Shown: positions 1 through 23,614 of the stretch, piece after piece
How the letters are laid out: each line of letters starts with the position of its first letter
Numbering within the stretch: position 1 is the first letter of the stretch
Assembly: GCF_003334315.1 (NCBI RefSeq)
Contig: NZ_QOWR01000066.1
From: Escherichia coli
GTDB lineage: Bacteria; Pseudomonadota; Gammaproteobacteria; Enterobacterales; Enterobacteriaceae
DNA: 23,614 nucleotides
Reading direction: 5' to 3' (one strand)
Notes under the pieces: generated by a model
What the model saw: only the letters and a program-made list of their open reading frames with translations
What the model was told of the DNA's origin: nothing
Databases searched by the model: none
Translations under genes and position numbers: made by a program

Positions 1-77
1 CTTTTCAAAAGGGTATTTTGGCTTTGACATATTAGGGGCTATTCCATTTCATCGTCCAACAAAATGGGTGCAGTACA
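1..77. mobile_element. Terminal segment of an IS3-family insertion sequence (IS150-like), partial; element body lies beyond the window start
   Basis: The gltL reading frame that encodes KLLERVG...LSGGQQQRV from position 78 hits TAG at 33-35, and no frame of 1-77 encodes ABC-ATPase-like sequence. The segment ends ...GCAGTACA at 77 (reverse complement TGTACTGCACCCATTTTGTTGGACG...), a TG...CA terminus typical of IS3-family ends. The resemblance to the IS150 inverted repeat is from memory and unverified. Confidence 0.4.
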
Positions 78-449
78 AAACTGCTGGAGCGTGTCGGGCT
101 TTCTGCTCACGCCAATAAGTTTCCGGCGCAGCTTTCCGGCGGTCAGCAGCAGCGTGTGGCAATCGCTCGCGCGTTGTGTATGGATCCTATTGCGATGCTG
201 TTTGACGAACCGACATCGGCGCTGGATCCGGAGATGATCAACGAAGTACTGGACGTGATGGTGGAACTGGCGAACGAAGGAATGACCATGATGGTGGTGA
301 CCCACGAAATGGGCTTTGCCCGTAAAGTGGCGAATCGGGTGATCTTTATGGACGAGGGTAAAATTGTCGAAGACTCGCCGAAAGACGCTTTCTTCGATGA
401 TCCGAAATCGGACCGCGCAAAAGACTTCCTCGCGAAAATCCTGCATTAA
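78..449 (+). CDS. gltL: Glutamate/aspartate ABC transporter ATP-binding protein, C-terminal part only; 5' portion absent, apparently interrupted by the IS end at 1-77
   Basis: The frame encodes ...[50 protein letters not shown]... (ABC signature LSGGQ and Walker B, hhhhDEPT) and runs to a TAA stop at 447-449. The supplied ORF 156..449 is the same frame from an internal Met. Confidence 0.8.
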
Positions 450-1585: not shown

Positions 1586-3256
1586 ATGGATAATGCAGAA
1601 CTCGCCATTGGTATCGATCTCGGTACTACCAATAGTTTAATTGCCGTCTGGAAAGACGGTGCCGCGCAATTAATTCCAAATAAGTTCGGTGAATATTTAA
1701 CACCATCCATAATTAGCATGGATGAAAATAATCATATTTTAGTCGGAAAACCGGCTGTATCACGGCGTACTTCGCATCCGGATAAAACGGCAGCGTTATT
1801 TAAACGTGCAATGGGCAGTAATACCAACTGGCGGTTAGGCAGCGACACATTTAACGCGCCAGAACTGTCCTCTTTGGTATTACGCTCATTAAAAGAAGAT
1901 GCCGAAGAATTTCTGCAACGTCCGATTAAAGATGTGGTGATCTCCGTTCCGGCTTATTTCAGCGATGAACAACGCAAGCATACCCGTTTAGCAGCGGAGT
2001 TAGCCGGGTTAAATGCGGTACGCTTAATTAATGAACCCACAGCAGCTGCGATGGCGTATGGCCTGCATACCCAACAAAATACCCGTTCGCTGGTGTTTGA
2101 TCTCGGTGGCGGCACGTTTGACGTTACGGTGCTTGAGTACGCCACGCCGGTGATTGAAGTTCACGCCTCCGCTGGCGACAACTTTCTTGGTGGCGAAGAT
2201 TTTACCCATATGCTGGTCGATGAGGTTTTAAAACGCGCGGATGTCGCCAGGACCACGCTTAACGAGAGTGAACTGGCAGCCTTGTACGCCTGTGTGGAAG
2301 CGGCAAAATGTAGCAATCAATCGCCATTGCACATTCGCTGGCAGTATCAGGAAGAAACGCGGGAATGCGAATTTTACGAGAACGAACTGGAAGATTTGTG
2401 GTTGCCGCTGCTCAATCGCTTGCGAGTGCCGATTGAACAGGCGTTGCGCGATGCGCGTCTGAAGCCGAGTCAAATCGACAGTCTGGTGCTGGTTGGCGGC
2501 GCGTCACAAATGCCGCTGGTGCAGCGAATCGCCGTGCGTCTGTTTGGCAAATTACCGTATCAAAGTTACGATCCGAGCACCATTGTCGCGCTGGGCGCAG
2601 CAATCCAGGCCGCCTGCCGCTTACGCAGTGAAGATATTGAAGAGGTAATCCTCACTGATATTTGCCCTTACTCGTTGGGCGTTGAAGTTAACCGCCAGGG
2701 CGTTTCCGGCATTTTCTCGCCGATTATTGAACGAAACACCACTGTGCCCGTGTCGCGTGTAGAAACTTATTCAACCATGCACCCGGAACAGGATTCAATT
2801 ACGGTTAACGTCTATCAGGGAGAAAACCACAAAGTTAAAAACAACATTCTGGTGGAATCCTTCGATGTGCCGTTGAAGAAAACCGGGGCTTATCAGTCGA
2901 TTGATATTCGCTTTAGTTATGATATCAACGGGTTGCTTGAAGTTGACGTGCTTCTGGAAGACGGCAGCGTTAAGTCCAGAGTGATTAACCACAGCCCGGT
3001 AACATTGAGCGCGCAGCAGATTGAAGAGAGTCGGACGCGGTTATCCGCATTGAAAATTTATCCGCGCGATATGCTCATCAATCGCACCTTTAAAGCCAAA
3101 CTGGAAGAGTTGTGGGCGCGGGCGCTGGGTGACGAGCGAGAAGAGATCGGCCGGGTGATCACCGATTTTGATGCGGCGTTGCAGTCAAACGATATGGCCC
3201 GCGTGGATGAAGTTCGGCGGCGGGCGAGCGATTATTTAGCCATTGAGATCCCATAA
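1586..3256 (+). CDS. hscC: Hsp70-family chaperone HscC (Hsc62)
   Basis: 556-aa ORF with Hsp70 signatures: IGIDLGTTNS near the N-terminus, VFDLGGGTFDVTVL, and LVLVGGASQMP. Length and N-terminus MDNAELAIGIDLGTTNSLIAVW match recalled HscC. Confidence 0.9.
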   Translation: MDNAELAIGIDLGTTNSLIAVWKDGAAQLIPNKFGEYLTPSIISMDENNHILVGKPAVSRRTSHPDKTAALFKRAMGSNTNWRLGSDTFNAPELSSLVLRSLKEDAEEFLQRPIKDVVISVPAYFSDEQRKHTRLAAELAGLNAVRLINEPTAAAMAYGLHTQQNTRSLVFDLGGGTFDVTVLEYATPVIEVHASAGDNFLGGEDFTHMLVDEVLKRADVARTTLNESELAALYACVEAAKCSNQSPLHIRWQYQEETRECEFYENELEDLWLPLLNRLRVPIEQALRDARLKPSQIDSLVLVGGASQMPLVQRIAVRLFGKLPYQSYDPSTIVALGAAIQAACRLRSEDIEEVILTDICPYSLGVEVNRQGVSGIFSPIIERNTTVPVSRVETYSTMHPEQDSITVNVYQGENHKVKNNILVESFDVPLKKTGAYQSIDIRFSYDINGLLEVDVLLEDGSVKSRVINHSPVTLSAQQIEESRTRLSALKIYPRDMLINRTFKAKLEELWARALGDEREEIGRVITDFDAALQSNDMARVDEVRRRASDYLAIEIP

Positions 3257-3263
3257 ACACGGC

Positions 3264-3295
3264 TGCCGGATGCGGCGTAAACGCTGCATCCGGCA
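3264..3295. repeat. REP-like (repetitive extragenic palindromic) element at the convergent hscC/djlC junction; probably also a bidirectional terminator
   Basis: TGCCGGATGCGGCGTAAACGCTGCATCCGGCA is an imperfect palindrome with the GCCGGATGCGGCG motif characteristic of enterobacterial REP sequences. Confidence 0.6.
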
Positions 3296-3315
3296 TCGGC
3301 GCAAAAAACACATCG

Positions 3316-4758
3316 TCAGCTAAACAACATCGCGATTTTGCCGAGAGCATAACCTATCACCAGCACCGTTAAACTGATTTTGATAATGCTGGTAATGCTC
3401 TGTGGTTTTTCACCCTCATCATTTTTTTCTTCATGATTTTCAGGTGTTGGCTCATCGACATCTTCATCCTCCGGCTCGAGTTTCACTTTCGTCAAAAGCA
3501 TCCGGGTGACAATGGCCTCTAATTCTCCGCCTTCCAGCCTTGTATTAAGACGGGCCAGCATCTCTTGTTTCGGAAACGCTTCAAGTACTACCTGTTCCGC
3601 TACCCGATACAAATCCAGGAACGGTGAATCTTGCTCTGTCTCGCTACCGACTCTCGATTTCCACCACGCCCATGCTTTGCGCTTGAAGAATAACGACTCA
3701 ATAAACGATTGACCTAACGGCGATAATTTTCCGCTATGTAAAATCTCCGCCCATAACAGCCGCGTCCGGGCGCTCTCACCAGGAACATATTTCAGCGGTT
3801 GACCTTGCGCATCTACCATGCTCCGCGCTTCGATAACCATCACTAATAACGCGAAATAATCCGGGCAATGACGCTTGCTCCACTGCAACAACAAATTATC
3901 AGCTTGTGTAGATGGGTAACTTTCCCAGTACGCGCAGAGATCGGCAAGCAGGCTTTCCCCCTCGCCGCAGTACAAACGTTGTGCACACAAGTAATACCGG
4001 GCATCTTCGCTTTCTGGTTCTTCCGTTTGCCACTGTTGAGCGACAGGAATGAGTTCCGCCATACCTGTTTGCACCGAGCTGTACCAGCGCAACAGTTTGC
4101 GATGTAACTTTGCATCATCAGGAATTAACCACGGACCTTCCATCGCCAAAAACGCAGTGACATAGTCAGGATGGTAACGGCAGCAACGTTCCAGCGCGAA
4201 GTAATACTCAACAGTCTGGTTCTGCAACGCAATGGGATATTCCAGAAGGCTAAGGAAATCGAAACAATCACCAGCCTGAATGGCCTCAAGAAAAGCCTCC
4301 CTTTCTTCCTCATCCATTCCTTCGCTGTCATTAAATGAATGCCAGTTCAAACGCTCTGCCAGCAAAGAAGCACAATTTAATGAAAGATATCGCGCTTCTA
4401 TGGCGATTGCACACAGCGGCCAGCGTAATTGATCGACATCCTCCATGTTCCAGGTATTTAATTGCTGAATAAATTTCTGCCAGGCGGAAGGCTGAAAACG
4501 ATCACTTTCTGAATCCAGTAATGTCCTGAATGCACGTAGTATTTCATGTTCAGCGGCAGCATCTTTTTCTTCATCATCTGCTTCCTCGACAGGATTTACC
4601 GCCAGTCGCAGGGCCTCTTCATAGGCCTGGCGTAATGCTTTAAACCCTTGCGGATCGGTTTCGGGATGACACAACGGTAAGCGAGCAAGATAAGCCTGGC
4701 GGATAATGTCTATTTGCGTCGTGCTTTCAATTTCGAGGATTTGCCAACATGTTTTCAT
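3316..4758 (-). CDS. djlC: J-domain (DnaJ-like) C-terminally membrane-anchored protein DjlC, putative HscC co-chaperone
   Basis: 480-aa ORF. N-terminus [50 protein letters not shown] aligns to J-domain helices II/III with HPE in place of HPD. C-terminus ...[26 protein letters not shown] is a hydrophobic tail anchor. Its start overlaps the ybeU stop (ATGA). Confidence 0.85.
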
Positions 4759-5462
4759 AGGTCGCTCACATCCTTAAGCGTTACCGGGCATTCAGACTGG
4801 ACAGTTAATGGCTGCCAGGGAAGCGTGGCATAGAAACGATCGCTTCCCGCTGCCAGCTCTTCGAACATACGACTCCCGGCGCTATCGTATTTGTACAGGG
4901 TTAGCGCCTCGCGTAGCGAAGTGTTGTCTTCGCACTGAGAAGATTGCCAGTAGAGACGTCCTAACGAATAGGCGGAAAAATAGTGCATCCAGCTGTGATA
5001 GTAATGGTGAGCTCGTACATAGACGCGCGATTGCAGCCATAAACTCTCTTCTTCCGTCAGCCACTTGTTGAGCACACCGACCCGTGACAGAAACCCCATT
5101 CGAACATAATCCCAGGCTTTGATTCCCCCTTCCCCACAGCACATAGCGGTTTGGGCAACGAATTGGGTATAAATCAACCCTCTCTCCGAGCCACCAGCAA
5201 TTAATGCTTTCCACTCTTCAGGGGAAGAGCGATGCCATGTCAGATATAAGCCAGCTAAATCATTGGCATGACCATCATCAGTCATCTGATAAATAGTCTG
5301 AATTAAATCATCACGATTATTTATTCCCCAGGATGATGAGAGCTCGAATTCTTTTATCCCAGTATACATTTTTGGCGAGTCATGCGCGGGTTTGCAACCC
5401 TGATTAAGTATTTCCATGGGCGCAGAAAGCGCAAAAAGAAGATATTGTTCTTCCTTATTCAT
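4755..5462 (-). CDS. ybeU: DUF1266-like protein YbeU (function unknown), first gene of a ybeU-djlC operon
   Basis: 235-aa ORF, a clear paralog of the ybeR product at 7552..8259 (shared blocks ...[20 protein letters not shown]...). AAGGGA Shine-Dalgarno upstream; stop overlaps the djlC start. Confidence 0.85.
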
Positions 5463-5563
5463 TTGTTAATAATCCCTTAAGTGCATTAACTGACTACTTT
5501 TTTATTATTGATGAGTATAAACTTGACGCTTTCAAAATAAAAAGAAAATCGAAGCATTCACAC

Positions 5564-6118
5564 ATGAATAAAAAATTAATGTATATATTCGCAATTTTTA
5601 TAGTTGCAGCAATTACCTGTATTAGCCAACCCAAGAAAACGACGTTGCGTGATAAAGCCATGGTGAATTATGCCTTTGATTATTTAAGCTCACCGGGCAG
5701 TCTTCCATTCACCACGGCAGCCACGGAGCTTTCCGCGATTCATGGTCACTCAACGTCGCAATATCGCCTTGGAGAATTTTATCTTCATGGTAGCGACGGT
5801 AAACCACTGGATTATACACAGGCGAGATACTGGTATGAGCAATCAGCGGAACAGGAAAATCCACGCGCGCAAAGTAAACTGGGGTGGATCTACCTCAAAG
5901 GTCTGGGGGTCAAACCCGACACCCGTAAAGCAATTCTCTGGTATAAGGAAGCAGCTGAACAAGGGTATGCTCATGCTCAATATACTTTAGGTTTGATCTA
6001 CAGAAATGGCTCAGGTATTAATGTTAACCATTATGAATCTCAAAAATGGTTAAAACTGGCCGCCAAACAACATTACAAAAATGCGGAAAGATTACTTGCC
6101 GGGCTTCCCGCACATTAA
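5564..6118 (+). CDS. ybeT: Sel1-repeat protein YbeT with N-terminal hydrophobic signal/anchor
   Basis: 184-aa ORF. N-terminus [22 protein letters not shown] is hydrophobic. Repeated Sel1-like units are visible ([50 protein letters not shown]...). Transcribed divergently from ybeU. Confidence 0.85.
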
Positions 6119-6127
6119 CGTCGACTG

Positions 6128-7555
6128 TCACCCGAACAGATGGAGTATTTTCCCTATCAAACCAGCAAAGATAAAAATATAGAAAATAATTTTAATGATG
6201 CCCAGACAGCCTGGCCCACCATCGTCAACGGGCATTGGCTGCGGTTGCGGCTCCGGTTCAACAGTTTGCTTCTCGGTAAAATTCGCCGCCTGAATTAATA
6301 ATCGACGAATAATTAATGCTTCCAGTGGACAACGATTTTCTGCATCAAGGCGGCTCACAATCGGCATTAATGATTCTTCTGTAGGTTGGCAGGCCTGCAC
6401 TAATTGTTTGGCAACTAGATATAATGGCCATAAGGTATGTTCTGTATCACGCGTGAGTGAGATCCGCGGCTTACGTCCTTTGTGCAAAACCATCTCGACC
6501 AGTGAACGCCCCAGCGCAGAGAGTTTTTCATCGCTGAGTATTTCGTATAAATGAAAACGCGTACGGGCGCTGTCGCCGGGGACATAAAGTAGCGGTTTTC
6601 CCTGATCGTTAACCAGATCACGCGCTTCAATCATCATCACCAGTAATGGGTAATAATCGACCCGATGCTGACGGCATCATTGCAACATTAAAGCATCCGC
6701 CTGGGTGGAGGGATACTCGCGCCAGTAGTCACAAAGTTCTGCCAACAGGCTTTCGCCTTCTCCACAATAGACGCGTTGCGCGTATTCATAATAAGGCGCA
6801 TCTTCATTATCAGGTTCAGTTTCCCGCCATGACTGGGCGTAATCCAGAAGTTCGGGGATATCCAGGCGACCTGCGCTATACCAGCGGAGTAAATTTCTGT
6901 GCAGTTTTGCATCATCGGGGATAATCACTGCGCGATGTTGCGCTAAATACAATGTCAGCCATTGTGGATGCGATGACCAAATCCGAGCGAACATTTGGTA
7001 AAAATCGATGGTGTCATTTTGCACGGCAACGGGCAGATGCAGAATGGTCTGGAAGTTAAAAACATTCCCCTTCGCAATGGCATATAAAAAGGATTCCAGT
7101 TCTTCTTCGTCTATTTCCCCGGTATTTTCCTCCTGTAACCACCGCAATCTTTCTGCTAATAACACCACGCACTCGAAGGATAAATGGGCAGTGTTCATGG
7201 CGATTGTGCACAGCGACCAGCGTAATTCATCAATCTCCTCCATCGAGCAATAATTTAATTGCTGAATGAATCGCTGCCAGGCGGAGGGCAGAAAACGTTC
7301 ACTATCAGAGGCAAGTAACGCACGAAAGGCGAGCAGAATTTCATGTTCTGCTACCTCATATTCTTCTGGTTGCCAAACAGATTTAGCAGGCGACTGCGCA
7401 ATCCGTAGCGCCTCCTCATACGCCTGACGAAGTTGTTTAAAACCCTGCGGATCGGTTTCTGGATGAAAGGACGGTAACAGCGCCAGATAAGCGCGGCGGA
7501 TAATATCGACGTCAGTCGTTTCCTCTATATCGAGGATCTTCCAGCAATTTTTCAT
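6128..7555 (-). pseudogene. djlB: djlB, J-domain membrane protein paralogous to DjlC, interrupted by a single in-frame TGA
   Basis: ORFs 6677..7555 (292 aa, [39 protein letters not shown]...) and 6128..6640 (170 aa) are in the same frame, separated only by TGA at 6677-6679 (minus strand). Alignment with DjlC (…[27 protein letters not shown]…) against DjlB (…[26 protein letters not shown]…) places the stop where DjlC has Trp (TGG). Confidence 0.8.
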
Positions 7556-8259
7556 AGGTCGCTCATATCCTTAAGCGTTTCCGGGCATGCAGAATAGTAA
7601 GCCAATGGTTGCCAGGACAAGGTAGGGTAATACGCATCATCACTGGCAAATAATTGATAAAACATATCATTGCTGGAATCGTCGTATTCTTTACGCGCTA
7701 AGAATTCGCGTAATAAAGGCAGATGATCATCTTCGGGAGACTGCCAATATTGCCGACCAAAGGTATAACCGGCAAAGTATTGCCGCCAGTTACTATAATA
7801 ACGTAGAGCCCGTAGATGAATGCGCGACTGGATCCATAGACTTTCTTCTTCGCTCAACCAGTTATTAAGTACGCCCATTCGGCTTAAAAAACCCATCCGG
7901 ACATAATCCCAGGCTTTGATTCCCCCTTCGCCACAGCATTCGGCGGTGCTGGCGACAAATTGCGCATAAGCCTGACCTTGCTCATTTAGTTCAGCAAGAT
8001 AGTCACGCCATTCACATGGCGAATAACGAAACCAGCGGTGATAAAACCCTGCCAACCGAGCGGCATGACCGTTATCGATCATTCGGTGAATTGTGCGCAG
8101 CAGGTCATCACGGTCATCAATTCCCCATGAGGAAGAAAGGTCAAAAAAGCATGTACCTAAATACATTTTGGGTGATGAATGCGAAGGTAAACAGCATTCA
8201 TTGCGTATTTCCATCGGAGTGGAAAGTGCAAACAATATTTTTTGCGACTCCATGTCCAT
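7552..8259 (-). CDS. ybeR: DUF1266-like protein YbeR (paralog of YbeU), first gene of a ybeR-djlB operon
   Basis: 235-aa ORF, colinear with YbeU ([23 protein letters not shown]... vs [23 protein letters not shown]...). Its stop overlaps the djlB start (ATGA). Confidence 0.85.
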
Positions 8260-8416
8260 ATAATTTATCCTTAAATATTCATTAAATGAATATTAGCCGC
8301 ATTGCGAGGCTCGTTTATTTATACTTTTCTGACGCGACATAATACGCATAAAATAAGGCTTACGCAAAAATGGAACACATAAAAATATAATATGTTTTAT
8401 CTGCAACCATAAGGAA

Positions 8417-9400
8417 ATGATAATGATTTTCACGTCAAGTTGCTGCGATAATTTATCAATAGATGAGATTATCGAACGTGCTGAAAAAGGCGATTGCGAG
8501 GCTCAATATATTGTTGGGTTTTATTATAATCGCGATAGCGCAATTGATTCTCCGGACGACGAAAAAGCCTTTTACTGGCTGAAGCTGGCCGCTGAGCAAG
8601 GTCATTGTGAAGCACAGTATTCCTTAGGGCAAAAGTATACCGAGGATAAAAGCCGTCATAAAGATAATGAGCAAGCCATCTTCTGGCTGAAAAAAGCTGC
8701 CCTACAAGGCCATACTTTCGCTTCCAACGCCCTTGGCTGGACACTGGATCGTGGAGAAGCCCCCAATTATAAAGAAGCGGTTGTCTGGTATCAGATAGCC
8801 GCGGAGAGCGGAATGTCTTATGCGCAAAATAATCTTGGGTGGATGTACAGAAATGGCAACGGAGTCGCAAAAGACTATGCGCTGGCATTTTTCTGGTACA
8901 AACAAGCTGCATTACAAGGCCATAGTGACGCGCAAAACAATCTGGCCGATCTTTATGAAGACGGAAAAGGCGTTGCTCAAAACAAGACACTCGCCGCATT
9001 CTGGTATTTGAAAAGCGCACAGCAGGGTAATCGGCACGCCCAGTTTCAAATTGCATGGGATTATAACGCTGGCGAAGGGGTGGACCAGGACTATAAGCAA
9101 GCGATGTACTGGTATCTGAAGGCTGCCGCTCAGGGGAGCGTCGGCGCTTACGTCAACATCGGTTATATGTATAAACACGGACAAGGCGTTGAGAAAGATT
9201 ATCAGGCTGCCTTTGAATGGTTTACGAAAGCCGCTGAATGCAATGACGCCACTGCCTGGTATAACCTGGCCATTATGTATCACTACGGAGAAGGAAGACC
9301 TGTCGATCTCCGACAGGCTCTCGACCTGTATCGTAAAGTTCAGTCATCCGGAACCAGAGATGTCAGTCAGGAAATTCGTGAGACTGAAGATTTACTGTAG
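8417..9400 (+). CDS. ybeQ: Sel1-repeat (TPR-like) protein YbeQ
   Basis: 327-aa ORF with at least seven tandem ~36-aa Sel1-like units of pattern AQxxLGxxYxxGxGVxxDxxxAxxWYxKAAxQG. Transcribed divergently from ybeR. The exact start is uncertain (ATG at 8417 or 8423). Confidence 0.8.
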   Translation: MIMIFTSSCCDNLSIDEIIERAEKGDCEAQYIVGFYYNRDSAIDSPDDEKAFYWLKLAAEQGHCEAQYSLGQKYTEDKSRHKDNEQAIFWLKKAALQGHTFASNALGWTLDRGEAPNYKEAVVWYQIAAESGMSYAQNNLGWMYRNGNGVAKDYALAFFWYKQAALQGHSDAQNNLADLYEDGKGVAQNKTLAAFWYLKSAQQGNRHAQFQIAWDYNAGEGVDQDYKQAMYWYLKAAAQGSVGAYVNIGYMYKHGQGVEKDYQAAFEWFTKAAECNDATAWYNLAIMYHYGEGRPVDLRQALDLYRKVQSSGTRDVSQEIRETEDLL

Positions 9401-10186: not shown

Positions 10187-12769
10187 ATGCAAGAGCAATA
10201 CCGCCCGGAAGAGATAGAATCCAAAGTACAGCTTCATTGGGATGAGAAGCGCACATTTGAAGTAACCGAAGACGAGAGCAAAGAGAAGTATTACTGCCTG
10301 TCTATGCTTCCCTATCCTTCTGGTCGACTACACATGGGCCACGTACGTAACTACACCATCGGTGACGTGATCGCCCGCTACCAGCGTATGCTGGGCAAAA
10401 ACGTCCTGCAGCCGATCGGCTGGGACGCGTTTGGTCTGCCTGCGGAAGGCGCGGCGGTGAAAAACAACACCGCTCCGGCACCGTGGACGTACGACAACAT
10501 CGCGTATATGAAAAACCAGCTCAAAATGCTGGGCTTTGGTTATGACTGGAGCCGCGAGCTGGCAACCTGTACGCCGGAATACTACCGTTGGGAACAGAAA
10601 TTCTTCACCGAGCTGTATAAAAAAGGCCTGGTATATAAGAAGACTTCTGCGGTCAACTGGTGCCCGAACGACCAGACCGTACTGGCGAACGAACAAGTTA
10701 TCGACGGCTGCTGCTGGCGCTGCGATACCAAAGTTGAACGTAAAGAGATCCCGCAGTGGTTTATCAAAATCACTGCTTACGCTGACGAGCTGCTCAACGA
10801 TCTGGATAAACTGGATCACTGGCCAGACACCGTTAAAACCATGCAGCGTAACTGGATCGGTCGTTCCGAAGGCGTGGAGATCACCTTCAACGTTAACGAC
10901 TATGACAACACGCTGACCGTTTACACTACCCGCCCGGACACCTTTATGGGTTGTACCTACCTGGCGGTAGCTGCGGGTCATCCGCTGGCGCAGAAAGCGG
11001 CGGAAAATAATCCTGAACTGGCGGCCTTTATTGACGAATGCCGTAACACCAAAGTTGCCGAAGCTGAAATGGCGACGATGGAGAAAAAAGGCGTCGATAC
11101 TGGCTTTAAAGCTGTTCACCCATTAACGGGCGAAGAAATTCCCGTTTGGGCAGCAAACTTCGTATTGATGGAGTACGGCACGGGCGCAGTTATGGCGGTT
11201 CCGGGTCACGACCAGCGCGACTACGAGTTTGCCTCTAAATACGGCCTGAACATCAAACCGGTTATCCTGGCAGCTGACGGCTCTGAGCCAGATCTTTCTC
11301 AGCAAGCCCTGACTGAAAAAGGCGTGCTGTTCAACTCTGGCGAGTTCAACGGTCTTGACCATGAAGCGGCCTTCAACGCCATCGCCGATAAACTGACTGC
11401 GATGGGCGTTGGCGAGCGTAAAGTGAACTACCGCCTGCGCGACTGGGGTGTTTCTCGTCAGCGTTACTGGGGCGCGCCGATTCCGATGGTGACGCTGGAA
11501 GACGGTACCGTAATGCCGACCCCGGACGACCAGCTGCCGGTGATCCTGCCGGAAGATGTGGTGATGGACGGCATTAACAGCCCGATTAAAGCAGATCCGG
11601 AGTGGGCAAAAACTACCGTTAACGGTATGCCAGCGCTGCGTGAAACCGACACTTTCGACACCTTTATGGAGTCCTCCTGGTACTATGCGCGCTACACTTG
11701 CCCAGAGTACAAAGAAGGTATGCTGGATTCCGAAGCGGCTAACTACTGGCTGCCGGTGGATATCTACATTGGTGGTATTGAACACGCCATTATGCACCTG
11801 CTCTACTTCCGCTTCTTCCACAAACTGATGCGTGATGCAGGCATGGTGAACTCTGACGAACCAGCGAAACAGTTGCTGTGTCAGGGTATGGTGCTGGCAG
11901 ATGCCTTCTACTATGTTGGCGAAAACGGCGAACGTAACTGGGTTTCCCCGGTTGATGCTATCGTTGAACGTGACGAGAAAGGCCGTATCGTGAAAGCGAA
12001 AGATGCGGCAGGCCATGAACTGGTTTATACCGGCATGAGCAAAATGTCCAAGTCGAAGAACAACGGTATCGACCCGCAGGTGATGGTTGAACGTTACGGC
12101 GCGGACACCGTTCGTCTGTTTATGATGTTTGCTTCTCCGGCTGATATGACTCTCGAATGGCAGGAATCCGGTGTGGAAGGGGCTAACCGCTTCCTGAAAC
12201 GTGTCTGGAAACTGGTTTACGAGCACACAGCAAAAGGTGATGTTGCGGCACTGAACGTTGATGCGCTGACTGAAGATCAGAAAGCGCTGCGTCGCGATGT
12301 GCATAAAACTATCGCTAAAGTGACCGATGATATCGGCCGTCGTCAGACCTTCAACACCGCAATTGCGGCGATTATGGAGCTGATGAACAAACTGGCGAAA
12401 GCACCAACCGATGGCGAGCAGGATCGCGCTCTGATGCAGGAAGCGCTGCTGGCCGTTGTCCGTATGCTTAACCCGTTCACCCCGCACATCTGCTTCACGC
12501 TGTGGCAGGAACTGAAAGGCGAAGGCGATATCGACAACGCGCCGTGGCCGGTTGCTGACGAAAAAGCGATGGTGGAAGACTCCACGCTGGTCGTGGTGCA
12601 GGTTAACGGTAAAGTCCGTGCCAAAATCACCGTTCCGGTGGACGCAACGGAAGAACAGGTTCGCGAACGTGCTGGCCAGGAACATCTGGTAGCAAAATAT
12701 CTTGATGGCGTTACTGTACGTAAAGTGATTTACGTACCAGGTAAACTCCTCAATCTGGTCGTTGGCTAA
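10187..12769 (+). CDS. leuS: Leucyl-tRNA synthetase
   Basis: Contains the class I aaRS HIGH motif ([15 protein letters not shown]) and KMSKS ([12 protein letters not shown]). Starting at ATG 10187 ([15 protein letters not shown]...) gives 860 aa, the canonical LeuS length. The ORF track's 10046 start is an in-frame upstream extension. Confidence 0.95.
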
Positions 12770-12783
12770 GCGCGGGAGGAAGC

Positions 12784-13365
12784 GTGCGATATCTGGCAAC
12801 ATTGTTGTTATCTCTGGCGGTGTTAATCACCGCCGGGTGTGGCTGGCATCTGCGTGATACCACGCAGGTTCCTTCCACTATGAAGGTCATGATCCTGGAC
12901 TCAGGCGATCCGAACGGGCCATTAAGCCGTGCGGTGCGTAACCAGTTACGTCTGAATGGTGTCGAGTTGCTTGATAAAGAAACCACGCGTAAGGACGTTC
13001 CATCCCTGCGTTTGGGTAAAGTGAGCATCGCGAAAGATACCGCATCGGTATTCCGTAACGGTCAAACAGCAGAGTATCAGATGATCATGACGGTTAATGC
13101 GACCGTGTTGATCCCCGGCCGTGATATCTACCCGATTAGCGCCAAAGTCTTCCGTTCGTTCTTCGATAACCCGCAAATGGCGTTAGCGAAAGATAACGAA
13201 CAAGACATGATCGTAAAAGAGATGTACGACCGTGCTGCCGAACAGCTGATTCGTAAGCTGCCAAGCATCCGTGCTGCGGATATTCGTTCCGACGAAGAAC
13301 AGACGTCGACCACAACGGATACTCCGGCAACGCCTGCACGCGTCTCCACCACGCTGGGTAACTGA
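12784..13365 (+). CDS. lptE: LPS-assembly lipoprotein LptE (RlpB)
   Basis: 193-aa ORF with GTG start. Lipoprotein signal with lipobox ...VLITAG|C. Gene order leuS-lptE-holA is conserved. Confidence 0.9.
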
Positions 13366-14396
13366 TGATTCGGTTGTACCCGGAACAACTCCGCGCGCAG
13401 CTCAATGAAGGGCTGCGCGCGGCGTATCTTTTACTTGGTAACGATCCTCTGTTATTGCAGGAAAGCCAGGACGCTGTTCGTCAGGTAGCTGCGGCACAAG
13501 GATTCGAAGAACACCACACTTTTTCCATTGATCCCAACACTGACTGGAATGCGATCTTTTCGTTATGCCAAGCTATGAGTCTGTTTGCCAGTCGACAAAC
13601 GCTATTGCTGTTGTTACCAGAAAACGGACCGAATGCGGCGATCAATGAACAACTTCTCACACTCACCGGACTTCTGCATGACGACCTGCTGTTGATCGTC
13701 CGCGGTAATAAATTAAGCAAAGCGCAAGAAAATGCCGCCTGGTTTACTGCTCTTGCGAATCGCAGCGTGCAGGTGACCTGTCAGACACCGGAGCAGGCTC
13801 AGCTTCCCCGCTGGGTTGCTGCGCGCGCAAAACAGCTCAACTTAGAACTGGATGACGCGGCGAATCAGGTGCTCTGCTACTGTTATGAAGGAAACCTGCT
13901 GGCGCTGGCACAGGCACTGGAGCGTTTATCGCTACTCTGGCCGGACGGCAAACTGACATTACCGCGCGTTGAACAGGCGGTGAATGATGCCGCGCATTTC
14001 ACCCCTTTTCATTGGGTTGATGCTTTGTTGATGGGAAAAAGTAAGCGCGCGTTGCATATTCTTCAGCAACTGTGTCTGGAAGGCAGCGAGCCGGTTATTT
14101 TGTTGCGCACATTACAACGTGAACTGTTGTTACTGGTTAACCTGAAACGCCAGTCTGCCCATACGCCACTGCGTGCGTTGTTTGATAAGCATCGGGTATG
14201 GCAGAACCGCCGGGGCATGATGGGCGAGGCGTTAAATCGCTTAAGTCAGCCGCAGTTACGTCAGGCCGTGCAACTCCTGACACGAACGGAACTCACCCTC
14301 AAACAAGATTACGGTCAGTCAGTGTGGGCAGAGCTGGAAGGGTTATCTCTTCTGTTGTGCCATAAACCCCTGGCGGACGTATTTATCGACGGTTGA
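13365..14396 (+). CDS. holA: DNA polymerase III delta subunit
   Basis: 343-aa [37 protein letters not shown].... Its start overlaps the lptE stop (TGATG). Confidence 0.9.
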
Positions 14397-14397
14397 T

Positions 14398-15039
14398 ATG
14401 AAATCTTTACAGGCTCTGTTTGGCGGCACCTTTGATCCGGTGCACTATGGTCATCTAAAACCCGTGGAAACGCTGGCGAATTTGATTGGTCTGACGCGGG
14501 TCACAATCATCCCTAATAATGTTCCTCCGCATCGTCCCCAGCCGGAAGCGAACAGCGTGCAGCGTAAACACATGCTTGAACTGGCGATTGCCGACAAGCC
14601 ATTATTTACTCTTGATGAACGCGAGCTAAAGCGCAATGCCCCCTCTTACACTGCGCAAACACTGAAAGAGTGGCGGCAGGAACAAGGACCGGACGTGCCG
14701 CTGGCGTTTATTATTGGTCAGGATTCATTGCTGACCTTTCCGACCTGGTACGAATACGAAACGATACTCGACAATGCACATTTGATCGTCTGTCGGCGTC
14801 CAGGTTACCCACTTGAAATGGCGCAACCGCAATACCAGCAATGGCTGGAAGATCATTTGACACATAACCCGGAAGATCTTCACCTTCAGCCTGCCGGTAA
14901 AATTTATCTGGCTGAAACGCCGTGGTTTAACATCTCGGCGACCATCATCCGCGAACGTTTGCAAAACGGTGAATCGTGTGAGGATTTATTGCCGGAACCG
15001 GTATTGACGTACATTAACCAACAAGGCTTGTATCGCTGA
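14398..15039 (+). CDS. nadD: Nicotinate-nucleotide adenylyltransferase
   Basis: 213-aa ORF with the nucleotidyltransferase motif [11 protein letters not shown] near the N-terminus. The ATG lies 1 nt after the holA stop. Confidence 0.9.
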
Positions 15040-15059
15040 TACCTGTCGTTACGGAGGGC

Positions 15060-15674
15060 ATGATGCGACTGTGGTTAATTCGTCATGGCGAAACACAAGC
15101 GAATGTCGATGGTCTGTACAGCGGTCATGCGGCCACCCCCCTGACCGCACGCGGTATTGAGCAAGCGCAAAATCTGCATACACTGCTACATGATGTTTTC
15201 TTTGACCTGGTTTTATGCAGTGAACTGGAACGGGCACAGCATACCGCGCGACTGGTTCTCAGTGACCGCCAGCTCCCCGTTCATATCATCCCTGAACTCA
15301 ACGAAATGTTTTTTGGCGACTGGGAGATGCGACATCATCGCGACCTCATGCAAGAAGATGCCGAAAACTATAGCGCGTGGTGCAATGACTGGCAGCATGC
15401 TATCCCCACGAACGGTGAAGGATTTCAGGCATTTTCGCAACGTGTGGAACGCTTTATCGCAAGGCTTAGTGAATATCAGCACTATCAGAATATTTTAATC
15501 GTCAGCCATCAGGGCGTACTGAGTCTGTTAATTGCTCGTTTAATTGGCATGCCTGCCGAGTCTATGTGGCATTTTCGCGTTGACCAGGGGTGTTGGAGCG
15601 CCATTGATATCAACCAAAAATTCGCGACGCTACGCGTCCTCAATAGCCGTGCCATCGGGGTCGAGAATGCATGA
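15060..15674 (+). CDS. cobC: Adenosylcobalamin/alpha-ribazole phosphatase (histidine phosphatase family)
   Basis: LWLIRHGETQAN matches the RHG histidine-phosphatase motif. The start may be the second ATG at 15063. Confidence 0.85.
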   Translation: MMRLWLIRHGETQANVDGLYSGHAATPLTARGIEQAQNLHTLLHDVFFDLVLCSELERAQHTARLVLSDRQLPVHIIPELNEMFFGDWEMRHHRDLMQEDAENYSAWCNDWQHAIPTNGEGFQAFSQRVERFIARLSEYQHYQNILIVSHQGVLSLLIARLIGMPAESMWHFRVDQGCWSAIDINQKFATLRVLNSRAIGVENA

Positions 15675-23410: not shown

Positions 23411-23614
23411 GGTGATGCTGCCAACTTACTGATTTAGTGTATGATGGTGTTTTTGAGGTGCTCCAGTGGCTTCTGTTTCTATCAGCTGTCCCTCCTGTTC
23501 AGCTACTGACGGGGTGGTGCGTAACGGCAAAAGCACCGCCGGACATCAGCGCTATCTCTGCTCTCACTGCCGTAAAACATGGCAACTGCAGTTCACTTAC
23601 ACCGCTTCTCAACC
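23411..23614 (+). mobile_element. IS1 insertion sequence, left inverted repeat and 5' portion; continues past the window end
   Basis: GGTGATGCTGCCAACTTACTGATTTAGTGTATGATGGTGTTTTTGAGGTGCTCCAGTG... is the canonical IS1 terminal inverted repeat and leader. Confidence 0.9.
23466..23614 (+). CDS. insA: IS1 InsA (transposition repressor / transposase N-terminal part), partial
   Basis: From GTG at 23466 the frame encodes [48 protein letters not shown], the InsA zinc-finger N-terminus. Confidence 0.85.

Follow-up and report, generated by a model that had tools for sequence, protein, structure and literature searches.

Organization of the djlB locus and its predicted product

The window, that is, the whole stretch of 23,614 nt analysed here (Escherichia coli assembly GCF_003334315.1, contig NZ_QOWR01000066.1), contains a segment with the gene order gltL-rihA-hscC-djlC-ybeU-ybeT-djlB-ybeR-ybeQ-ybeL-leuS and onward. 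An IS150 junction lies in gltL at positions 1-77, and this junction was found together with the djlB TGA in none of the complete genomes. The gene of interest, djlB (ybeS), occupies 6128..7555 on the minus strand and is present as a pseudogene, allele W293*. Its 1428 nt (7555-6128+1, or 476 codons) are colinear with the intact 475-aa gene of K-12, and a premature TGA stands at codon 293 (6677..6679, minus strand), at which TGG (Trp) is the ancestral codon. An earlier note on this DNA had described two minus-strand open reading frames here, 6677..7555 (292 aa plus stop) and 6128..6640 (170 aa), as lying in one frame and as aligning across the break with the paralogue DjlC, which has Trp at the matching position. 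Both observations were confirmed: in the ORF list the two ORFs share a frame, with 12 sense codons (gap 6641..6676) and one stop between them, and DjlC (YbeV) is colinear with DjlB over its full length at 51% identity, with Trp (...LLLQWSKRH...) at the corresponding site. The view that the TGA was the only defect of djlB is also correct for the window, as base-by-base comparison with djlB of K-12 W3110 revealed a single difference in 1428 nt, G879A, which turns codon 293 from TGG into TGA. The reading around the stop is ...TTG CAA TGA TGC CGT... (TGA at 6679..6677, minus strand; context CAA-TGA-T). The untranslated 3' rest of the gene, codons 294-475 plus stop (6128..6676, minus strand), stays in frame and intact, with zero further stops or frameshifts in the 549 nt past the TGA. 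Thus, the locus is orthologous to and syntenic with K-12 djlB beside hscC, with the same neighbours (ybeQ, ybeR-djlB, ybeT, ybeU-djlC and hscC) in the same order and 1427 of 1428 bases identical, and differs from it in that codon 293 is TGA instead of TGG and residues 293-475, with the membrane anchor among them, are missing from the product.

The surrounding genes are intact in the window. ybeR (DUF1266; 7552..8259, minus strand) is the 5' gene of the ybeR-djlB pair, and its stop overlaps the djlB start (ATGA, 7552-7555). The Sel1-repeat protein YbeQ, partner of the ybeR-djlB module, is encoded at 8417..9400 on the plus strand. The second DUF1266 copy of the pair of modules is ybeU (4755-5462, minus strand) and the second Sel1-repeat copy is ybeT (5564-6118, plus strand). 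The paralogue djlC (480 aa; 3316..4758, minus strand) encodes a protein with the same layout as DjlB, namely a J domain, a helical domain, an acidic linker and a tail anchor. Unlike djlB it is intact in the window, though with a 9-bp in-frame deletion (DAHP to E) near 3524; this deletion was present in 12 of the 12 genomes examined that carry the djlB TGA (hereafter carriers) and absent from all non-carriers compared across the site (1443 versus 1452 nt). Finally, hscC (1586..3256, plus strand) encodes the Hsp70 partner of DjlB and DjlC (PMC8215388). A role of the module in anti-phage defence was considered and found no support: in a PADLOC scan of DjlB, YbeR, YbeQ, YbeT, YbeU and DjlC, the sole matches were marginal, repeat-type ones between the Sel1 proteins and PtuA (E = 1e-4 to 2e-3), with no passing domain. 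NCBIfam offered no model for DjlB or YbeR, and for YbeQ and YbeT only sub-threshold Sel1-repeat similarities.

Both DjlB and DjlC belong to the class C J-domain proteins, are tail-anchored in the inner membrane and act as partners of HscC; both lie under the proteomic detection limit, and deletion of djlB and djlC together causes Cd2+ sensitivity (PMC8215388). For DjlC, experiments showed that it stimulates HscC and inserts into the membrane, whereas stimulation of HscC by DjlB is assumed from similarity, even in K-12 (PMC8215388). Sensitivity to UV is, besides that to Cd2+, a known phenotype of hscC and djlBC mutants. We examined which of these features are still encoded using an AlphaFold model, all-alpha with a mean pLDDT of 80, and the alignment of 25 homologues on which it was built; the homologues came from Escherichia, Salmonella, Citrobacter and Enterobacter, and DjlC of the window was one of them. 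The J domain (residues ~1-55; 7391..7555, minus strand) was recognized by a weak Pfam DnaJ match (residues 4-47, E = 0.0017), by the alignment and by three N-terminal model helices; its catalytic tripeptide is HPE (H31, P32, E33), invariant in the 25 homologues, in place of the canonical HPD. In the model, residue 293 falls inside helix 284-297, within the block of the central domain that is predicted best (pLDDT 92-95). The C-terminal tail-anchor helix spans residues 451-474 (6134..6205, minus strand; AlphaFold model and PMC8215388) and lies 3' of the TGA; it is encoded in the DNA and absent from the predicted product. The part that can still be translated, a 292-aa N-terminal fragment of 33 kDa (6680..7555, minus strand), comprises the J domain and ~60% of the helical domain, with no membrane anchor. 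The djlB DNA is therefore that of a member of the DjlB/DjlC family, and its product is an incomplete member. Because the stop cuts in the middle of a domain and removes the anchor, the model suggests that the fragment would be mislocalised, unstable or both. A polar effect of the stop is not expected, since djlB comes second in its pair with ybeR and is followed by the convergent gene ybeT.

Distribution, origin and further decay of the TGA allele

To place the allele in the population, a 61-mer centred on the djlB TGA was compared with 5426 complete E. coli genomes. Exact matches were found in 50 of them and matches with one or two mismatches in 3335 more; the UGA allele is restricted to 50 of 3388 genomes bearing the djlB 61-mer. 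It should be noted that some strains are represented by more than one record, so that the 50 carrier records correspond to ~47 distinct strains. They come from many laboratories, from pig, poultry (chicken, duck and turkey), frog, dog, pangolin, cattle and human hosts, and from China, Japan, Viet Nam, Canada, France and elsewhere. The full 1428-nt djlB including the TGA had 100% identity matches in many complete RefSeq genomes, and the exact 292-aa truncated protein occurred on 990 contigs in a collection of 15 billion proteins from public assemblies. W293* is real in the population and is no assembly artefact, because the identical allele recurs in 50 complete genomes and its product on these 990 contigs. 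A sequencing or assembly error in the window, which the earlier note had offered as one explanation, has nothing in its favour except the prior that single-base errors occur, and its probability is negligible in view of the identical allele in so many strains, hosts and countries. The defect seen by the note in one assembly is genuine, and it is not private to that assembly.

In every carrier inspected, NCBI PGAP flags djlB as a pseudogene with an "internal stop"; strain CP53, whose sequence is identical to djlB of the window, is one such case. In practice the allele matters little: the clade, which includes many livestock- and human-associated isolates, should be handled as djlB-null, as annotation pipelines already do, and W293* provides a handy single-base marker of the clade.

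The direction of the change is clear from comparison with related strains. TGG and an open reading frame were found at codon 293 in 15 of the 15 non-carriers read, among them K-12, W409, six further K-12-like genomes, 730V1, GF161, O157 Al Ain, O104:H4, DXMF6-3R and E20, whose djlB is 95.8-99.9% identical to that of the window. In addition, Trp293 is at least 90% conserved in the alignment of 25 homologues. Because TGG is present in all non-carriers read and Trp293 is conserved in homologues, these sequences indicate that TGA is derived and TGG ancestral, and the case that would have undone the earlier note's idea of an inactivation, an ancestral and conserved TGA in related genomes, is not what the related strains contain.

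The best 38 whole-window matches (H157-H194, 100.0% over 23.5 kb) were all carriers, and the next match, W409 (99.9%), has TGG. For this reason the sequences point to a single mutational origin of W293* with inheritance by descent, monophyly of the carriers being judged from this 23-kb region alone. Several carriers may be ST48. One carrier, 14EC001, was typed as ST793 (PMC6206212), and spread of the allele through recombination is possible. Within the clade there are nested sub-haplotypes, defined by ybeR G196S and by a 314-bp deletion adjoining IS1 at the right end of the window; both are present in the window and absent from 162.2, 14EC001, OkiPb01684 and F1053. Private SNPs are also present in carrier strains. 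Across the 23 kb, only two changes were found in all carriers examined and in no non-carrier, namely djlB W293* and the 9-bp deletion in djlC. The djlB pseudogene is thus young yet clade-wide. The earlier note had proposed a very recent inactivation; the derived change from TGG to TGA and the barely decayed rest of the ORF agree with a recent event, whereas "very recent" is too strong for a clade that extends across hosts and continents, includes nested sub-haplotypes and an ST793 member, and has acquired secondary IS insertions and deletions.

A second destructive lesion of djlB was found in 7 of the 50 carriers, and the ORF was otherwise unbroken in the other 43. In ET220, an IS1B lies at window positions 7122-7129 (read directly); BL12, GS04 and BHD6 have the same 2204-nt span and IS1B annotation, and the four genomes probably have this insertion in common. 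Strain 2017.13.01CC has an ISKpn26 (an IS5-type insertion) at 7156-7159. ET245 and ES6 combine IS1B with a deletion that takes the whole of ybeR together with the 5' portions of djlB and ybeQ; the deletion junctions are different in the two strains (gene nt 427 and 646). These lesions represent at least three independent events. An IS-split djlB was observed in none of 49 non-carrier genomes with a full-length match, taken from an evenly spaced sample of djlB-bearing genomes, although this comparison is descriptive, as the events are phylogenetically non-independent and the numbers small. Point changes of djlB in carriers comprised three nonsynonymous (A123V, E143G and A382G) and two synonymous ones (P175P and N316N). 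The IS insertions and deletions in descendants, small as their number is, indicate a loss of constraint on djlB. The unbroken 3' ORF in 43 of the 50 carriers fits a young pseudogene; weak residual selection, for example through low-level readthrough, might possibly contribute.

Recoding, readthrough and loss of function

An in-frame UGA within an open frame is also found in the selenocysteine genes fdhF, fdnG and fdoG and at the prfB frameshift site (UGA-C), and this is where the likeness of djlB to them lies. Unlike them, djlB has no SECIS hairpin, no Cys/Sec homology and no conservation of the UGA, and its +4 base is U, not C. An Rfam scan of positions 6000-7700 at E <= 10 for a SECIS or other RNA element gave no family match, the sole match in this region being a chance snoRNA (E = 5.9), and the predicted folding of the 76-nt segment around the UGA was not better than that of shuffled sequences (z = 0.16). 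The residue found at this position in at least 90% of the 25 homologues is Trp, not Cys or Sec. As for programmed readthrough, which is associated with a leaky context and a conserved stop, the context here is UGA-U and the stop is limited to one clade. In E. coli, readthrough is lowest in the UGA-U context (PMC5289835 and PMC11126739). The earlier note's suggestion of a stop-codon readthrough site finds no support and is rejected in view of the UGA-U context, the lack of structure in the folded segment, the unconserved UGA and the additional breakage of the ORF in carriers.

Several alternative explanations of the stop have to be weighed in the light of these data. That the UGA is programmed, either as selenocysteine or as a regulated readthrough site, draws on the identity of the codon and the open frame after it and on nothing else, and against the absence of an Rfam family match, the z-score of the fold, the Trp of the homologues and the confinement of the UGA to the 50 carriers we regard it as next to impossible. 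We also consider improbable a leaky hypomorph, in which occasional decoding of the UGA by near-cognate tRNA-Trp yields trace wild-type DjlB that keeps the function, and hence the ORF, under selection. UGA is the leakiest stop of E. coli and is misread mainly as Trp, with reporter values of 0.7-6% in K-12 (PMC11126739), and since DjlB is normally below detection (PMC8215388), a trace might be enough for a low-abundance catalytic co-chaperone. The ORF 3' of the stop is, moreover, unbroken in the window and in most carriers. Set against this are the U at +4, the 7 of 50 carriers in which djlB has been destroyed by IS elements or deletions, and the ratio of three nonsynonymous to two synonymous point changes, which gives no sign of constraint. 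K-12 carries a weak RF2 allele, with Thr at prfB codon 246 where the efficient form has Ala, and the high reporter values obtained in this strain may not hold for the carriers. Any readthrough product would be wild-type DjlB; this coincidence is the automatic outcome of a TGG-to-TGA mutation and provides no evidence of programming.

The two halves of the interrupted gene were considered as sources of new products. Reinitiation giving a C-terminal fragment was examined as a candidate: in-frame GTG306, ATG307 and ATG308 follow the stop, and the 20 nt upstream of them, TCGATTATTACCCATTACTG, contain no Shine-Dalgarno sequence. From the sequence, reinitiation downstream of the stop appears unlikely, and the exact 170-aa C-terminal product was not found in the 15-billion-protein collection. 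Another idea is that the 292-aa fragment has taken on a new role as a soluble J-domain protein and can still stimulate HscC. Its J domain and the translational coupling to ybeR are intact; however, the cut lies within a helix of the best-predicted part of the helical domain and not at a domain boundary, the IS insertions of carriers fall within the N-terminal part (gene nt 397-434), and the nonsynonymous changes A123V and E143G have accumulated there. We consider such a neofunctionalised truncation highly improbable, a little less so than recoding.

The preferred interpretation, which we hold with high confidence, is that W293* is an ordinary lineage-specific loss-of-function allele of djlB inherited by the strain of the window. 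It resembles the common nonsense pseudogenes that PGAP labels 'internal stop' in being derived and clade-restricted, in having no recoding signal and in having suffered later IS insertions and deletions, the sole nuance being that the djlB stop replaces Trp, the residue that natural misreading of UGA would restore. According to this proposal, one G-to-A transition would have converted the Trp293 codon TGG into an opal stop in the ancestor of one E. coli clade, which is closely related to K-12 in this region. Ribosomes coupled from ybeR would terminate at codon 293 and release a 292-aa fragment that ends within a helix of the all-alpha central domain and is 183 residues short at its C terminus. 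The missing part would include the tail anchor, which places DjlB on the inner membrane beside its Hsp70 partner, HscC. With DjlC and HscC intact in the window, the HscC system should remain functional by way of DjlC. djlB would then drift, and in sister genomes it is broken further by IS1 and IS5 insertions and IS1-mediated deletions. Trace full-length wild-type DjlB might still arise through near-cognate tRNA-Trp at the UGA, as incidental leakiness with no programmed signal.

Selection and damage across the hscC-djlC-ybeU-ybeT-djlB-ybeR-ybeQ island

The loss of djlB is one of many lesions in this island. At least 80% of djlB was found in one piece in 3709 of the 5426 complete genomes. In MNCRE44, which we take to be ST131, the 5' part of ybeQ, ybeR and djlB have been lost, and only the last 128 nt of djlB remain; the same 128-nt remnant was seen in ~8 of 60 evenly sampled matches. 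O157 Al Ain has kept djlB and has stops in djlC and ybeQ, and BL21(DE3) lacks ybeT and ybeU, has a ybeQ stop and contains a djlB'-'djlC chimera with a frameshift. W409, the closest TGG relative of the carriers, has an IS1 at djlB nt 100-108 as well as ybeR K190*. One carrier, HS30-1, has hscC W510* and djlC S378* besides W293*, so that hscC, djlC and djlB are all stopped. In a K-12-like control group, MB30 has ybeU Q6* and ETEC1732 a ybeR frameshift. Overall, at least eight independent loss-of-function routes in the island were identified in ~35 genomes inspected.

We also analysed the selection acting on these genes. Among lineages with intact genes, long-term dN/dS was 0.06 for hscC, 0.17 for djlB and 0.17 for djlC (island range 0.06-0.20), and 0.04 for leuS. 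Because this shows purifying selection where the gene is kept, intact djlB is functional and the stop a real loss. Within 12 carriers, unique coding changes in the island were 18 nonsynonymous or nonsense versus 5 synonymous, compared with 7 versus 11 in the flanking housekeeping genes (Fisher p = 0.022). The ratio of 18:5 is about the neutral expectation (roughly 3:1) and not above it, and the K-12-like control group had a similar pattern (5 nonsynonymous or nonsense changes and 1 frameshift versus 2 synonymous). The relaxation is neither clade-specific nor above neutrality, as follows from the near-neutral ratio and the similar control. For the TGA clade, ~20 nonsynonymous to 2 synonymous changes in the first four genomes had suggested that the island was positively selected, an idea that was discarded when the ratio became 18:5 with 12 carriers.

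These data bear on the question of whether W293* and the other lesions were favoured, one copy or the whole HscC module being costly in some niches. Such adaptive loss seems unlikely to us, though clearly less remote than any of the alternatives weighed above. Independent lesions do recur (MNCRE44, O157, BL21(DE3), W409, HS30-1, MB30 and ETEC1732), the carriers differ between island and flanks in the contrast just given, and the only clade-wide changes in 23 kb fall in djlB and djlC. However, the carrier ratio is about neutral and the K-12-like controls are equally rich in nonsynonymous changes, the flanks consist of essential housekeeping genes, so that the contrast may reflect dispensability alone, and the long-term dN/dS values show that the genes are kept where present. 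We have little confidence that the djlB stop is one case of a dismantling of the duplicated HscC co-chaperone island that recurs across E. coli and may be selected. If the losses were adaptive, the module would have a niche-dependent cost or liability, which would offer a handle on the physiological role of HscC. The earlier note had remarked that inactivation of one copy would be notable if the module were costly; lesions do recur across the island in many lineages, whereas the ratios of nonsynonymous to synonymous changes fit relaxed or neutral evolution and fall short of demonstrating that loss was selected.

Repeated inactivation of the island in wild and laboratory strains alike, taken together with purifying selection on its genes where they are kept, agrees with a system that is useful under certain conditions. 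The island appears to be conditionally dispensable, with no proof of selection for its loss. In the search for the physiological role of HscC, comparison of natural nulls with intact relatives could serve as a guide, although no new mechanism is opened by the present allele. The lineages with a damaged island include successful ones, such as those with the ST131-type deletion, O157 and the laboratory strains of E. coli B.

Changes in both J-protein paralogues

DjlB and DjlC, the paralogous J-protein co-chaperones of the Hsp70 HscC, share a J-domain signature tripeptide with all 25 homologues that we aligned: HPE, in contrast to the canonical HPD. In djlB it comprises H31, P32 and E33 (window 7463-7471), each of which was invariant across the alignment. 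Besides the djlB stop (W293*, TGG to TGA) that defines the TGA carriers, a second change was identified in djlC (3316-4758, minus strand), which has lost 9 bp in frame, compared with K-12, at window position ~3524. The deletion replaces K-12 ...LEGGDAHPLEAI... by ...LEGGELEAI... and shortens the protein from 483 to 480 aa. All 12 TGA carriers examined had this deletion, which was found in none of the non-carriers among the genomes compared across the site. Thus, both J-protein paralogues were changed on the branch leading to the TGA clade.

Coding changes and lesions in the hscC-ybeQ island

In 12 TGA carriers, unique coding SNPs in the island (window 1586-9400) comprised 18 nonsynonymous or nonsense versus 5 synonymous changes, whereas the flanking housekeeping genes had 7 and 11, respectively (Fisher p = 0.022 for the island contrast). 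Synonymous density was similar in the island and the flanks. It should be noted that one carrier, CP53, by itself supplied seven or eight of the island's amino-acid changes, including ybeQ L55P and R110P (residues counted from the start at 8423). The ORF finder placed the ybeQ start at the ATG at 8417 (327 aa), which PGAP also chose for CP53; its choice for most of the other genomes was 8423 (325 aa). A G-to-T change at 8425 abolishes the second ybeQ ATG in CP53. In another carrier, HS30-1, seven of the eight private differences from the window fell within the island (23.5 kb compared). HS30-1 has hscC W510* (TGG to TGA, equivalent to window 3115) and djlC S378* (TCA to TAA, equivalent to window 3626) in addition to the djlB stop; therefore, the Hsp70 and both of its J-proteins are stopped in this genome.

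Island lesions could also be identified beyond the TGA clade. In E. coli B strains, a deletion (equivalent to window ~4792-7193 in BL21(DE3), NC_012971.2) runs between the 5' end of djlB and that of djlC. The resulting frameshifted djlB'-'djlC chimera immediately follows ybeR, ybeT and ybeU are gone, and ybeQ has an internal stop. Therefore, BL21(DE3), a common expression host, appears to be without any intact HscC co-chaperone. Independent lesions were present in five further genomes. O157 Al Ain had internal stops in djlC and ybeQ, and MNCRE44, which we take to be ST131, had lost 5' ybeQ, ybeR and djlB except for the last 128 nt of djlB. W409, the closest TGG relative, carried an IS1 at djlB nt 100-108 together with ybeR K190*. 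In the K-12-like group, ETEC1732 had a 1-bp deletion in ybeR, and MB30 had ybeU Q6* and djlC W278R.

Flanks of the island and ends of the window

The island itself was nearly identical between the window and K-12-like genomes. Differences from these genomes across window 10187-15560 were mostly synonymous SNPs, which clustered within leuS (11113-12445) and across holA, nadD and cobC (13649-15551). Such clusters beside a near-identical island form a mosaic of the kind that recombination tracts at its borders typically produce.

At the left end, window 1-77 is the end of an IS150 inserted in gltL, with the junction at 78. Over window 1-400, the sequence was 100% identical to the gltL::IS150 junction found in BL21(DE3), C41, C43 and other E. 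coli B strains. The insertion was missing from all 50 complete genomes that carry the TGA, and their matches began at window 78; therefore, either the strain of the window is absent from the complete-genome set, or IS150 was inserted twice at one gltL site.

The right end (23411-23614) extends into an IS1 element, with the transposase start at ~23466. Relative to the carriers 162.2, 14EC001, OkiPb01684 and F1053, the window and several others have lost 314 bp from the interval that separates lipB and the IS1, and with it a ybeF remnant; this IS1-adjacent deletion marks a subclade within the TGA clade.
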